Assembly: GCA_034408935.1 (NCBI GenBank)
Contig: DAOUMV010000025.1
Location: 99,593-163,592, forward strand
From: Dehalococcoidia bacterium
GTDB taxonomy: Bacteria > Chloroflexota > Dehalococcoidia > SM23-28-2 > RBG-16-64-32
Reading direction: 5' to 3'
DNA length: 64,000 bases
Shown here: positions 4,180 through 57,518 of the stretch, one piece after another
Layout: each line of letters opens with the position of its first letter
How positions within the stretch are numbered: the stretch's first letter is position 1
The notes under the pieces: model-generated
Seen by the model: only the letters and a program-made list of their open reading frames with translations
What the model was told of the DNA's origin: nothing
Database searches by the model: none
Position numbers and translations under genes: made by a program

Positions 4180-4212
4180 GCATCTACTGAGCCTGTCGAA
4201 GGGCGAGCTCCT
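4180..4212. repeat. Palindromic mini-element family C copy (reverse orientation) upstream of the membrane-gene/thrS operon
   Basis: The reverse complement reads GGAGCTCGCCCTTCGACAGGCTCAGTAGATGCC. Confidence 0.5.
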
Positions 4213-4497
4213 TGGGCCGCTAACGGGTGCCTCCGGGGCCGCCTACCGTCCCCGCCATCGGCGGGGCGTTCGACGGCCGGCTCGCGGGAGGTTTTCGCCG
4301 CGGCAGTGGGCTGGCACGCTCTCAGCCTGCGCTCGCCTCTCTGTCGCCTTGCCGCGACTACTCGTTCCGGTCTTCGCCTTTTGCGATGATCTGCACAGGC
4401 AATGGTAACAATGCCCCTTGGACACGTCAACAACGGCCCAGACCAAGCGCTTCCTGAAACCGGACGCAAGTCGTACAATAGGGGACGGCCTGGAGGT

Positions 4498-4574
4498 GGG
4501 CGATTAGCTCAGTTGGTTAGAGCGCAGCGTTGACATCGCTGAGGTCAGTGGTTCGAGTCCACTATCGCCCACCA
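4498..4574 (+). tRNA. tRNA-Val (anticodon GAC)
   Basis: Cloverleaf folded by hand: acceptor GGGCGAT/ATCGCCC, anticodon stem CAGCG/CGCTG, loop TTGACAT, T-loop TTCGAGT, encoded CCA. Confidence 0.9.
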
Positions 4575-4760
4575 CTTCGCTTACCCCTCTTAGGCTACTA
4601 GCCGCCCGCCGTCTTCAAGAACTTGCTCTTGATTCAGCACCCGGGTTGCGCCAGAATGGAAACGGCTGCCCCGGCGGCAGCTCATCGGCTGGGGTTATTG
4701 CCGCGTACGGCAAGCTCGTGATATACTTCGCAAACCTGGGCCCTGGCCAGCGACCGTCGC

Positions 4761-4836
4761 GGGCCGCTAGCTCAATTGGCAGAGCAGCTGACTCTTAATC
4801 AGCGGGTTCCGGGTTCGAGTCCCGGGCGGCCCCCCA
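4761..4836 (+). tRNA. tRNA-Lys (anticodon CTT)
   Basis: Acceptor GGGCCGC/GCGGCCC, anticodon stem GCTGA/TCAGC, loop CTCTTAA, T-loop TTCGAGT, encoded CCA. Confidence 0.85.
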
Positions 4837-4861
4837 ATAGTGAGCAACCAAGATGGAGAAA

Positions 4862-54313: not shown

Positions 54314-54314
54314 C

Positions 54315-55025
54315 ATGAGCGCCACGCTAGCGGTAACCGATCTGAACAAGACCTACGGCAGCGGGGCGCTGGCGGTGCACGCCGTGCGGGACGTGAACTT
54401 CAGCACGGAACCGGGGGACTTCGTGGCCATCGTGGGGCCGTCAGGGTCGGGTAAGACGACGCTCCTGGCGATGATCGGGGGGCTGCTCAGGCCGACGAGC
54501 GGCAGCATCCATGTGAGCGGCCAGGAGATCGGACGCCTGTCGGATGGGGAGCGGGCGAGGTACCGCCGTGACAGGGTCGGCTACGTGTTCCAGGCGAACA
54601 ACCTGATCCTCTTCCTGACAGCGCGGGAGAACCTGACGCTCATGTATGAGATCGGGCCGGGAGGCCGTCGCGAGGCCATCAGCCGGGCGGACGGGCTGCT
54701 GGAGGAGCTGGGCCTCACCTCCCGCGCACACGCCCTTGCCAGTCAGCTTTCGGCGGGCGAACGCCAGCGGGTGGCCATCGCCCGCGCCCTGATGCGGGAC
54801 CCCTGGCTGATCCTCGTCGATGAGCCCACCGCGAACCTGGACTCGGAGCTGGGCGAGCAGGTGGTACGATCGCTCATCGATGAAGTGAAAGGCCGGGGGA
54901 AGCTGGGCATCATGGTCACGCACGACCCGCGCATGGCCGCTCTGGCCGACGTCGTCCTGGAGATGCGGGACGGCCATCTGATACGGCGGGAGCGACAAGC
55001 GGGCGAGGAGACGAGGCGCGCCTAG
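54315..55025 (+). CDS. ABC transporter ATP-binding protein
   Basis: GPSGSGKTTLL Walker A, LSAGERQRVAIARAL, Walker B ILVDEPTANLD. CAGGAG RBS. ATG is 1 nt after the permease stop. Confidence 0.85.
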   Translation: MSATLAVTDLNKTYGSGALAVHAVRDVNFSTEPGDFVAIVGPSGSGKTTLLAMIGGLLRPTSGSIHVSGQEIGRLSDGERARYRRDRVGYVFQANNLILFLTARENLTLMYEIGPGGRREAISRADGLLEELGLTSRAHALASQLSAGERQRVAIARALMRDPWLILVDEPTANLDSELGEQVVRSLIDEVKGRGKLGIMVTHDPRMAALADVVLEMRDGHLIRRERQAGEETRRA

Positions 55026-55774
55026 CGGCGATTCGTTCGCATCGGCAGCAATTCCGCGATAGAGCGGATGATCCGATCCGGGCGGACGGTCGCCCCCGCA
55101 GGTAGCCCCGCTCCCGGCGGGTCGACCCAGATGGCGTAGAGACCGAGGCGCTGGGGCGCGGCAACGTCCCACTCCAGGTTGTCGCCCACGCTCCAGGTCT
55201 GCTCAGGCTCAGACCCGAGCGCCCGCATGGCGGCCCGATACACGCGTTCGTCCGGCTTGCCGCAACCGAACTCGCCCTCGATGAGGATATGGTTGAAGTG
55301 ACGCGCCAGATCGAAGCGCTCGACCTTGGCACGCTGTCCCTCTGCACTGCCGTTGGTGATGAGACCGAGGCGGACACCCATCGCGCGCAGACCCTCCAGC
55401 GCCTCGATGGCTCCGGGGAACAGGCGGACACCGGCCTCGCGGAGGTCACGGTACCGGTGGGCGGTGTTCCGCGCCAGAGTAGGAAGATCGAGGCCCAGAG
55501 ACCGAAGCGCCTCCTCCACGATTCCGCTGGTCGCTTTCCTGAGGTCCAGCCTGCCTTCCCGGTGACGGTCCGGGTCCGACCAGAATCGACGGCGGGCTGG
55601 GGCGAGGGCGGCGAGGAGGGCATCGGCCTCGAGGCCCTGGACCTGCGCGGCCGCCTCCTTACAAACGGTGCGCCAGGCGGGCTCGACGCTGCTGCTGTCG
55701 TCGATGATGGTGTCGTCCAGGTCGAATATGATCGCCTGCGGGGCGATGCGCCCTCTCTGCCCACTCGCAGTCAC
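55022..55774 (-). CDS. HAD-superfamily hydrolase (subfamily IA)
   Basis: Motif I IIFDLDDTI, motif II LITNG, motif III/IV K ... VGDN. Located 4 nt downstream of the mutL stop. Confidence 0.8.
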   Translation of the reverse strand: MTASGQRGRIAPQAIIFDLDDTIIDDSSSVEPAWRTVCKEAAAQVQGLEADALLAALAPARRRFWSDPDRHREGRLDLRKATSGIVEEALRSLGLDLPTLARNTAHRYRDLREAGVRLFPGAIEALEGLRAMGVRLGLITNGSAEGQRAKVERFDLARHFNHILIEGEFGCGKPDERVYRAAMRALGSEPEQTWSVGDNLEWDVAAPQRLGLYAIWVDPPGAGLPAGATVRPDRIIRSIAELLPMRTNRR

Positions 55775-55778
55775 GGAG

Positions 55779-57518
55779 CTAGCGTCGGCCGAACTCCCGG
55801 GCCAGCGTCTCGGCGCTCATGTGGATCATGGTCGGGCGTCCGTGCGGGCAGGTGCTGGGCGCCTCTGAGTTCTCCATCTGGATGACGAGCTCTCGCATCT
55901 CCTCCTGGCTCAGCGTCTTGCCGGCGCGGATGGCGCTGTGGCAGGCCAGGGACATCGCTACGCTGTCACGGCGATCGCCTTCGCCCTCCTCCAGCATGAG
56001 GTCCAGGAACGACACGATCGCCTGGCGAGGGTCGGAGCCAGCGAGGGCCGTGGGCACGGCGCGCACGAGGTAGGACGCCTGGCCGAAGGGCTCGACGGCG
56101 AAGCCGTGGTCGCCCAACAGCTCCTCGTGTTCGGTGATCAGCGCCCGATGCGGGGGCGAGAGGTCCAGCGTCAGCGGCTCGAGCAGCGCCTGCACGTCCG
56201 GAGCGCTCTCCACGCGCTGGCGGCAGAAGCGCTCGTAGAGGACGCGCTCGTGGGCAGCGTGCTGATCGATGAGGTACATACCGTCGGGGCCTTCGGCGAT
56301 GATGTAGGTGCTGCCAAGCTGGCCGATGACACGCAGGGCGGGCAGGGCGGCGGCGGGCGTCGACGGGCCGGCCGCGGGGGATGGCTGCGTTGCCTCCGCT
56401 TCCGCCTGCCTGCGCTCCAACGCGCGGGCGTGCTCCCACAAGGGTGGCGACGAGGGCTGAACGGAGAGATCGAGCGTCGCTGAGGGGGCAACCGTGGCCG
56501 CGGGCACTGGCGCGGACTCCAGCAGGGCTGCCCTCACCGCGCGCTGGACTGCCCCGAACACGGCCGACTCGTCCCGGAAGCGGACCTCTCGCTTCGTCGG
56601 ATGGACATTGACGTCCACCTCCTCGTGGGGCATCCGCAGGTGGAGGACGGCGATGGGATAGCGCCCGACCATCAGCATCCCCCGATACGCCTCCTCCACT
56701 GCGTAGGCGAGGCGCCGACTCTGGATCCAGCGCCCGTTGACGAACAGGCTCACGTAGCCCCGGCTGGCGCGGCTCACGTGGGGCGAGGAGGACAGCCCTT
56801 CGACGGAGCTCAGGACAGGCCCTTCCACGGTCACAGCGCCTTCGCCTGGCCGGACGGGGAGCATCGCCGCGGCCACATCCGCGCCATAGACGGCGGCGAT
56901 GGCGTCCCGCAGTTCGCCGCTGCCGCTGGTCAGCAGTACCTGCCGACCGTCGAGGGTTAGGGAGAAGCGCACGGCCGGGTAAGCCAGGGCGTAGTGGCTG
57001 ACCACGGAGGCGATCTGGTTGGCCTCGGTGGAGGGAGAGCGCAGGAACTTGCGGCGCGCTGGCTGGCGGGCGAAGAGGTTGCGCACGGCGACGCTGGTGC
57101 CCACAGGGGCGCCCCGGCTCCCTCGCTCCACCGCGGCGCCGCCGTCGAGTCGGATGAACGCGGCGGACTGAGCGTCGGGCGGCCGCGACACCATCTCCAC
57201 CTCGGCCACGGCGGCGATGGCGGGGAGGGCCTCGCCGCGGAAGCCGAGGCTGGTGATGCGCAGCAGGTCGTCATCCGTCAGCTTGCTGGTGGCGTGACGG
57301 GCGAAGGCGATCTCCAGTTCCTCGGGGGCCAAGCCGCATCCATCGTCCACCACGCGGATGGTGTCCGTACCACCACCGGCGATCTCCACCGAGATGACGC
57401 CGGCGCCGGCGTCGAGGGCGTTCTCCACCAGCTCCTTGACCACGGAGGCGGGCCGCTCCACCACCTCGCCAGCGGCGATCCTGGCGGCGACATCAGGGGA
57501 GAGAACGCGGATGGTCAA
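55779..57518 (-). CDS. mutL: DNA mismatch repair protein MutL
   Basis: GHKL ATPase motifs ELVENALDAG, DDGCG. TTG start with an AGGAGC RBS and a TACAAT -10. Its linker contains a degenerate mini-element copy (56794-56822, encoding GPVLSSVEGLSS). Confidence 0.9.
   Translation of the reverse strand: MTIRVLSPDVAARIAAGEVVERPASVVKELVENALDAGAGVISVEIAGGGTDTIRVVDDGCGLAPEELEIAFARHATSKLTDDDLLRITSLGFRGEALPAIAAVAEVEMVSRPPDAQSAAFIRLDGGAAVERGSRGAPVGTSVAVRNLFARQPARRKFLRSPSTEANQIASVVSHYALAYPAVRFSLTLDGRQVLLTSGSGELRDAIAAVYGADVAAAMLPVRPGEGAVTVEGPVLSSVEGLSSSPHVSRASRGYVSLFVNGRWIQSRRLAYAVEEAYRGMLMVGRYPIAVLHLRMPHEEVDVNVHPTKREVRFRDESAVFGAVQRAVRAALLESAPVPAATVAPSATLDLSVQPSSPPLWEHARALERRQAEAEATQPSPAAGPSTPAAALPALRVIGQLGSTYIIAEGPDGMYLIDQHAAHERVLYERFCRQRVESAPDVQALLEPLTLDLSPPHRALITEHEELLGDHGFAVEPFGQASYLVRAVPTALAGSDPRQAIVSFLDLMLEEGEGDRRDSVAMSLACHSAIRAGKTLSQEEMRELVIQMENSEAPSTCPHGRPTMIHMSAETLAREFGRR

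Follow-up and report, generated by a model that had tools for sequence, protein, structure and literature searches.

Hairpin repeats dispersed in a Dehalococcoidia genome and their association, in other genomes, with genes for small GIY-YIG nucleases

Results

Repeat units among the genes of the window

The DNA analysed here, referred to as the window, is a 64,000-nucleotide stretch from a Dehalococcoidia bacterium (Chloroflexota; GenBank assembly GCA_034408935.1, contig DAOUMV010000025.1, positions 99,593 to 163,592 of the forward strand). It carries a family of short hairpin repeats, each called a unit below, which lie in a T-box leader upstream of thrS, in the leader of a PHP-family gene, between smc and an open reading frame (ORF), 5' of an acetate-coenzyme A (CoA) ligase gene, and within ftsY and mutL. 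In other genomes the same unit flanks genes encoding single-domain GIY-YIG proteins of about 95 amino acids (aa). A first-pass annotation, made from the letters of the window, had proposed a dispersed family of small palindromic elements, and every copy that it listed was confirmed in place.

Three exact matches to the 20-nt core CCCTTCGACAGGCTCAGGRC and a fourth with two mismatches are present in the window, while 0.03 copies are expected from dinucleotide shuffles. A covariance model was trained on 145 units from other genomes together with four window copies, and the window was scanned with it without filters. Six solid units were detected, all with E values of 4e-5 or lower. Five are on the plus strand: the unit at 19052-19084 (model match 19048-19088, E 4e-6), whose core is exact and whose arms are decayed, in the leader of the PHP-family gene; that at 31947-31979 (match 31943-31983, E 1e-7), a perfect hairpin with a variant stem and loop; that at 31989-32021 (match 31985-32025, E 5e-10), with an exact core and partly paired arms; that at 35358-35391 (match 35354-35395, E 2e-7), a perfect hairpin with a 14-nt loop, within ftsY; and that at 51582-51614 (match 51578-51618, E 4e-10), 5' of the acetate-CoA ligase gene. 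The sixth, at 4171-4208 on the minus strand (match 4174-4214, E 4e-5), has a displaced 3' arm and lies in Stem III of the T-box leader. The unit at 31947-31979 was revealed by a loop-centred search, and the first-pass list had missed it.

Two further copies were accounted for on the plus strand. A unit-derived insertion in mutL, a gene of the minus strand, spans 56796-56822 and reaches E 0.18 in the model, and a degenerate composite at 51694-51750, which the earlier list had given as a copy, yields marginal matches only (E about 5). The window thus contains about eight copies: the six solid units, the mutL insertion and the degenerate composite. As had been annotated, some lie in leaders or between genes and others within coding regions, and both strands and all frames are represented. 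Two to three of the eight are intragenic, and seven are in the sense orientation relative to the local gene. No further unit was found in the 10 kb beyond the end of the window.

Sequence and folding of the unit

The unit is about 33 nt long. In an alignment of 149 units, its 13-nt loop, TTCGACARGCTCA, is essentially invariant and is closed by a C·G-rich stem of 4 bp with covarying pairs. Alignment columns 12 and 30 form CG in 61 units, UA in 45 and GC in 27, and columns 13 and 29 form CG in 100 and GC in 38. Pairing over a 10-bp helix was 63% versus 48.6±0.9 in shuffles. The covariation score was 0.393 versus 0.165 in shuffled alignments; none of 500 shuffles reached the observed value, and slid controls did not exceed 0.155. 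Because the loop is asymmetric, the unit has a defined orientation.

Optional outer arms of the type CCGYTC…GARCGG are often present, with their outer positions paired in only 40-55% of the units. The first-pass annotation had taken such terminal inverted repeats to be kept by most copies. In the window, however, the long inverted arms are intact in two copies, imperfect in two or three, and absent at 19052 and in mutL, and the defining feature of the family is instead the invariant 13-nt loop with its short covarying stem.

The folding check that had been proposed was carried out with DNA parameters, and perfect hairpins were obtained for the units at 31947 (-12.9 kcal/mol, z -5.6) and 35358 (-12.3 kcal/mol, z -4.9). 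The copy at 4171-4208 also folds (-11 kcal/mol, z -2.5). The arms of the unit at 51582-51614, CCGCTCGCCC TTCGACAGGCTCA GGACGAACGG, are fully paired on the minus strand only, with G·T pairs. The unit at 31947-31979 reads CCGCTCGTGG TTCGACTGGCTCA CCACGAGCGG.

In other genomes, units also occur as inverted doublets of about 80 nt, in which a reverse unit is followed by a spacer of 0-45 nt and a forward unit. Doublets were found in sphingomonads, Burkholderiales, Methylococcales, one cyanobacterium and one Chloroflexota metagenome-assembled genome (MAG), and they fold into long DNA hairpins (e.g., -32.8 kcal/mol, z -7.9). In variant units the loop is 12, 14 or 16 nt long, or TTCGA(S) and (S)CTCA enclose an inner hairpin of 20-40 nt. 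At two loci (L009:88-160; L118:1488-1536, 2197-2262 and 2567-2670), neighbouring units share one arm and are arrayed head to tail with a 24-27-nt period, to which the length of the 24-nt insertion in mutL corresponds.

Insertion of units into ftsY and mutL

The unit in ftsY is translated in frame (residues ~143-154 of 362), where the protein has a loop between its N and G domains. The hairpin loop of the unit contains an additional G. Compared with the solved FtsY structures, the translated stretch is inserted. The relatives of the window's FtsY are Chloroflexota MAGs, and among 120 homologs the protein loop is empty in about 35, which are from Chloroflexota. Other homologs carry unit peptides here (PSTGSGRTE, TLRQAQGERD, PFDKLRA and PVLSEVEG) in three frames and both orientations, so that this loop is a hotspot. 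At the DNA level, one empty and two filled alleles were compared, and the unit core was found with GAACGG on either side. A second repeat-derived peptide, AGDLKVAPT, was observed in the same FtsY loop of six closely related homologs (P0242, P0243, P0246, P0247, P0251 and P0285). This suggests another palindromic repeat family, which we take to be a GTAG-type repeat, GTAGGGGCGACC…GGTCGCC.

The unit in mutL is antisense to the gene. It contributes 24 nt in frame, encoding PVLSSVEG, and is a 14-nt-loop variant, TTCGACGGAGCTCA. The mutL gene of the window is exactly 24 nt longer than an orthologous fragment (L392) with 90% protein and about 88% DNA identity. On the sense strand, the empty allele of L392 reads …GTG|GAAGGCCTGGCC…, and the window reads …GTG GAAGGGCCTGTCC TGAGCTCCGTC GAAGGGCTGTCC…. 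At this site, 11 new bases are enclosed by a 12-13-nt direct repeat, and with these bases the TTCGAC…CTCA signature of the unit becomes complete. The eight residues are absent from the solved MutL structures and from all 70 representatives shown. Because the copy coincides with a 24-nt insertion that is absent from L392, it was accepted in spite of its E value. The insertion had been assigned to the MutL linker, but it is situated at V231-G241, in the N-terminal DNA_mis_repair/transducer domain.

The comparison with empty sites in relatives, suggested with the first-pass annotation, thus gave empty alleles for both genes. Since these alleles exist in close relatives, the copies in ftsY and mutL are true insertions.

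Units in leaders and between genes

The copy at 4171-4208 is part of a T-box leader at 4132-4383 on the minus strand. The match of this leader to RF00230 (E 2e-12) reaches 58.7 bits, short of the gathering score of 93, and its specifier is probably ACC (Thr). An ORF at 4035-3286 follows, and then thrS at 3168-1105, in which ThrRS domains were found. The copy is composed of CTCGCCC, the loop TTCGACAGGCTCA + GTAGATGCCT, and GGGCGAG; in the Rfam T-box alignment it takes the positions of Stem III, the loop of which it expands by 18 nt. Relative to RF00230, another stem of the leader is expanded too.

Upstream of the PHP-family gene, an in-frame ATG (19086-19088) is located just 3' of the unit, and the long ORF matches the family from residue 36 onwards. 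The long N-terminus is therefore artefactual, as the first-pass annotation had warned for this gene. The 3' part of the unit (CAGGAC) supplies an AGGA at 19074-19077, 8 nt upstream of the ATG, which may serve as the ribosome-binding site of the gene.

The same warning had been given for the acetate-CoA ligase gene, and there it probably does not hold. The composite consists of the unit fragments CCCTTCGACAGGCC…, TC TTCGACGCTGCTCA GGAC and AGGCTCAGGAC, and looks like decayed pieces of the 14-nt-loop variant. From residue 46 onwards the protein matches the ligase family. Between the composite and the conserved ligase domain (window 51621-51760), no in-frame ATG, GTG or TTG was found, so translation probably includes the composite stretch (…APSTGPATDSSTLLRTGSG…) as an N-terminal tail of the ligase, which would be real protein and not an artefact.

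The units at 31947-31979 and 31989-32021 are in tandem, between smc and an ORF. Four sizeable ORFs beside copies or core genes had no Pfam match (32082-33611, 17614-18996, 57696-58700 and 3286-4035), and an NCBIfam scan of three of them (32082-33611, 17614-18996 and 3286-4035) also gave no match. Two ordinary features of the window, a large (Bacillus-type) signal recognition particle RNA at 14955-15218 and a cluster of tRNA-Val, tRNA-Lys and tRNA-Leu genes at 4498-4946, fit the Chloroflexota origin.

Distribution in genomes and viral contigs

The exact 18-mer CCCTTCGACARGCTCAGG was found at at least 120 loci of a species-representative genome collection, for which about 35 chance matches are expected in the entire 596 Gb. 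The conserved 3' arm is also present in 54 of the 140 matches listed (chance probability ~0.002 each), and an independent unit signature in 60 of 120 loci among the matches listed. By record titles, these loci come from at least 10 phyla, with Pseudomonadota, Chloroflexota, Cyanobacteriota, Actinomycetota, Bacteroidota, Nitrospirota, Eremiobacterota, Zixibacteria, Binatia, "Deltaproteobacteria" and lineages of the candidate phyla radiation (CPR) among the names. A core match in the CPR member Candidatus Staskawiczbacteria (L012:~340-431) abuts the 3' end of a tRNA gene. The 18-mer was also present in at least 120 IMG/VR viral contigs (L217-L336), with the 3' arm conserved in 33 of the 140 matches listed. 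These copies could reflect phage-borne spread, or host DNA within provirus calls. A literature search returned nothing relevant on the translated peptides of the unit or on its loop as a DNA or RNA sequence.

Association with genes for small GIY-YIG proteins

ORFs within 600 bp of units were clustered for the 120 genome loci. The dispersed copies adjoin unrelated housekeeping genes, and no common family emerged. A strict GIY-YIG pattern was matched at one of these loci only, L118 from Eremiobacterota, in which a GIY-YIG gene of 100 aa has three reverse units upstream and three forward units downstream. Unit-coded peptides (PSTSSG, LRQAQ, FDKL, LSLSKG) were found at the end or start of 38 of the 120 closest homologs of the L118 protein.

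We then collected 80 metagenomic loci solely by similarity to the GIY-YIG protein family, and counted the 13-nt loop with up to two mismatches. Within 250 bp upstream of the GIY-YIG gene, 41 reverse and 12 forward units were found, and within 250 bp downstream 44 forward and 20 reverse units, against a background density of 0.115 loops per kb elsewhere in the same loci. With a generic definition of the unit (a 4-nt arm, TTCGA…CTCA, and the complementary arm), a correctly oriented unit was present within 300 bp in 66 of the 80 loci and on both sides in 36, at a background of 0.059 per kb. As a negative control, distant GIY-YIG relatives in viral contigs were analysed, and units were present in only 2 of 55 loci. 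The ~95-aa GIY-YIG gene is thus associated with the unit in a specific inverted geometry, in which reverse units precede the gene and forward units lie at or after its stop codon. Pfam assigned PF01541 alone to the partner protein, as a single domain. The relatedness of the nucleases tracks the hairpin type, the nearest neighbour being of the same type in 55 of 64 cases (33.5 expected), a comparison that is confounded by shared ancestry.

Relation to Ssn nucleases

The 94-aa protein SsnA of Neisseria meningitidis (CDD cd10448), which consists of a single GIY-YIG domain, binds and cuts the NTS hairpin repeat as single-stranded DNA (ssDNA) only, on one strand only, and does not act on RNA (Chenal et al. 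2025, PMC11893778). NTS-like repeats, termed SRM, adjoin ssnA homologs on both sides in many phyla; the NTS-ssnA-NTS layout has been likened to an insertion sequence, and the role of the system outside Neisseria is described as unknown (PMC11893778).

A probe built from a consensus of Ssn-type proteins retrieved more than 8000 real GIY-YIG proteins of ~95 aa, of which P0121-P0240 are the listed set. The unit-associated protein P0001 shares 36% identity with P0150 of this set (E 9e-11). Another member, P0156 from Rhodocyclaceae (locus L201), has the exact NTS consensus directly before its start codon and after its stop. The two NTS repeats of this locus (L201:1462-1500 and 1795-1830) have the same orientation, and the Ssn-type gene between them belongs to an operon of AtuA, GIY-YIG and enoyl-CoA hydratase genes. 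A phmmer match of P0150 to a cyanobacterial WD40 protein (2ymu, E 8e-18) contained no stretch that passed alone and is probably compositional. From these sequence comparisons, the partner nuclease appears to be a sister clade of Ssn, which may or may not fall within Ssn proper.

Discussion

The copies in the window belong to a hairpin repeat family of many phyla with a GIY-YIG partner of ~95 aa elsewhere, and we consider it likely that this family represents a new hairpin class of the Ssn-type kind, in which a repeat is paired with an ssDNA nuclease. We infer that the nuclease gene is present elsewhere in this genome. Activity of the nuclease on this hairpin, and mobility driven by the nuclease, are suggested by analogy with SsnA and NTS. 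By the same analogy, the unit would fold when the DNA is single-stranded, and the cognate nuclease would recognise the hairpin, probably via the conserved loop, and nick nearby in a strand-specific manner. This interaction, or the repair of the break, would probably seed new copies; the short direct repeats at the two insertion sites hint at a microhomology or staggered-cut step. Copies would persist where a short hairpin is tolerated, i.e., in intergenic leaders, a variable riboswitch stem and protein surface loops. Some of them may have gained roles at the RNA level, for example the copy in the T-box stem or the one with the Shine-Dalgarno-like AGGA.

Several observations weigh against this reading. 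The published SRM pattern, HGTCWYN(0-2)YYVSBRHN(0-5)WNVSBRGN(0-2)RNCYNB, matched none of 344 units (±25 nt, either strand), and neither SRM nor NTS matches were found in the window, whereas the model NTS matched as the positive control. P0001 scores about equally with UPF0213 (structures 1zg2 and 1ywl; 45 bits) and with the Ssn clade flanked by NTS (40 bits). Most of the pairing is lost in the copies at 19052, at 31989 and in mutL, and the 19052 copy gives no hairpin. A clean, consistent target-site duplication was not found at the ftsY and mutL sites. The last seven residues of the query used to collect the 80 loci are unit-coded, which slightly biases the ranking of these loci toward those with a downstream unit and leaves the upstream counts unaffected. 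Finally, neither the window nor the next 10 kb past its end contains a GIY-YIG gene, and because of this the window copies could be orphans, perhaps relics that have outlived their enzyme.

A bolder proposal, which we regard as possible but rather doubtful, is that the unit and the ~95-aa GIY-YIG gene make up an autonomous mobile element of ~0.4 kb, the GIY-YIG counterpart of RAYT/REPIN or IS200. The enzyme would recognise the 13-nt loop in ssDNA, and the doublets and the single units of 24-34 nt would be non-autonomous derivatives. Such an element would have spread to more than 10 phyla, partly via phage DNA, and would enter essential genes in frame as well as RNA leaders. If this is true, the family would offer a new, ready-made specificity class of ssDNA-cutting enzymes.

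It is unlikely, in our judgement, that the GIY-YIG gene is a selfish homing-type gene which landed in existing doublets, the repeats themselves being spread by slippage or host recombination. The gene sits exactly at the spacer position of an inverted doublet, and GIY-YIG domains are classic homing endonucleases (PMC1564403). A phylogenomic study of GIY-YIG proteins from 2006, in which repeats are not mentioned, regarded the inheritance of the stand-alone prokaryotic members as vertical (PMC1564403). The 11 new bases and the 12-13-nt duplication in mutL could be produced by slippage or template switching, and the tandem arrays of L009 and L118 point in the same direction. However, the partner protein has no DNA-binding domain of the homing-endonuclease type, the tracking of hairpin type by nuclease relatedness fits a co-evolving pair of enzyme and site, and the Ssn precedent is one of direct hairpin recognition.

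Quite unlikely also is the view that the units are mainly transcribed RNA hairpins, acting as mRNA stabilisers or as processing or protein-binding sites, with the nuclease link being secondary. The sense orientation of seven of the eight window copies, the position of one copy as Stem III of a T-box RNA and the AGGA placed before a start codon by the 19052 unit favour it; moreover, the loop is conserved and the stem varies, as is typical of RNA recognised by proteins. On the other hand, no Rfam family covered the units, either in a gathering-score scan of the whole window or in a scan at E<=10 around 31850-32120. No T-run follows any of the window copies, and a role as intrinsic terminators was rejected for this reason. 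The units flank the nuclease gene in both orientations and are translated inside genes. G·T mismatches are about as frequent as C·A mismatches, which gives no sign that either strand is selected as RNA, and SsnA acts on ssDNA and not on RNA (PMC11893778).

The first-pass annotation had pointed to a RAYT or IS200-like mobiliser. The size of the unit, its hairpin form and its dispersed intergenic sites do resemble REPs, the inverted doublets in other genomes are REPIN-like, and inverted repeats around an enzyme gene are the geometry of RAYT. Mobilisation of REP/REPIN-type elements by RAYT, an IS200-like Y1 tyrosine transposase, is nevertheless highly improbable here: the gene bracketed by units encodes a small GIY-YIG nuclease and not a Y1 transposase, the conserved GTAG tetranucleotide is missing from the 149-unit alignment (the lone GTAG at 4184 is a local change), and no other recurrent neighbour family was found in the 120 loci, for which no dedicated Y1_Tnp profile scan was run. 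In the literature, nothing was found that links GIY-YIG to REP, REPIN or RAYT.

Chance similarity, by which we explain two weak covariance-model matches in coding sequence (47303-47345 and 22073-22109, E about 0.02), has practically no probability as an account of the family, given four core matches where 0.03 are expected, and a conserved protein-coding motif, which the first-pass annotation had rightly discounted, has none to speak of either, with copies that are intergenic, on both strands and in three reading frames, and with empty alleles in orthologs.

These observations have practical consequences for annotation. Translated forms of the unit (PFDKLRANG, LRQAQGER, PSTSSGRT, VRPELVEG, LSLSKGE) contaminate called proteins, including 38 of 120 GIY-YIG homologs and dozens of FtsY homologs, and ORFs are artificially lengthened. 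A real T-box falls under the Rfam gathering threshold with its 18-nt Stem III expansion and the expansion of another stem. In-frame insertions into two essential genes, together with one in a riboswitch stem, are documented in a single window, and the clean empty and filled alleles of ftsY and mutL are material for studying how repeats are seeded. Since the 13-nt loop does not vary from phylum to phylum, it may be the conserved site recognised by a new family of site-specific ssDNA nucleases. To the recently reported combination of hairpin repeats with small GIY-YIG nucleases acting on ssDNA, the family would add a second, structurally different class of hairpin, which is invisible to the published motif.

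Comparison with known repeat systems

Among transposons, the family resembles the IS200/IS605 ssDNA transposons and the MITEs and PATEs derived from them in the proposed recognition of ssDNA hairpins and in very small elements. It differs from IS200/IS605, which have a Y1 HUH transposase, direct end hairpins and a length of about 700 bp or more. Compared with MITEs, which have terminal inverted repeats and a target-site duplication of fixed length, some copies have arm-like inverted repeats, and the ftsY and mutL sites, with GAACGG on either side and a 12-13-nt direct repeat, respectively, show no consistent duplication.

In-frame insertion of a palindromic repeat into essential protein-coding genes, at tolerated positions, was reportedly described for the Rickettsia palindromic elements (RPE) by Ogata et al. 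in 2000. RPE-1 is about 100-150 bp long and restricted to Rickettsia, whereas the units of the window are 24-34 nt long and occur in many phyla.

With REP/REPIN-RAYT systems, the family shares hairpins of ~35 nt, inverted doublets and a single enzyme gene between inverted repeats. The enzyme fold, however, is GIY-YIG versus HUH/Y1, and it is the loop rather than the stem that is conserved.

CGTC-tagged REPs, which include dRS3 and Rickettsia RPE-4 and RPE-6, have no dedicated transposase and are often found in repair genes; they consist of a CGTC head, an 8-9-bp stem, a 4-5-nt loop and a CCA tail (Di Nocera et al. 2013, PMC3733652). The present units are likewise small palindromes without a known transposase, and head-to-head dimers are common in CGTC-tagged REPs. 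Intragenic copies are also shared, many of theirs being in replication and repair genes (PMC3733652). In contrast, the units of the window lack all four of these defining features; their loop is 13-14 nt long and there is no CGTC head.

The closest comparison is with Ssn/SRM. Whereas an NTS has a CGTC head, a stem of 8-9 bp and a loop of 3-5 nt, the conserved part here is a 13-nt loop, or a loop with an inner hairpin. This unit flanks the gene in inverted copies, and in the one NTS locus read, L201, the copies are direct. Two to three of the eight window copies lie in genes, unlike NTS, of which 2% of the copies are intragenic (PMC11893778). The hairpin arms of some relatives, on the other hand, begin with CGTCAYCC, like the NTS head CGTCATTCC. 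As in Ssn/SRM, the partner is a small single-domain GIY-YIG protein of ~95 aa, the layout is repeat-gene-repeat and the spread across phyla is broad, and the window family, like NTS, consists of multicopy hairpin repeats of 20-50 nt with a defined orientation.

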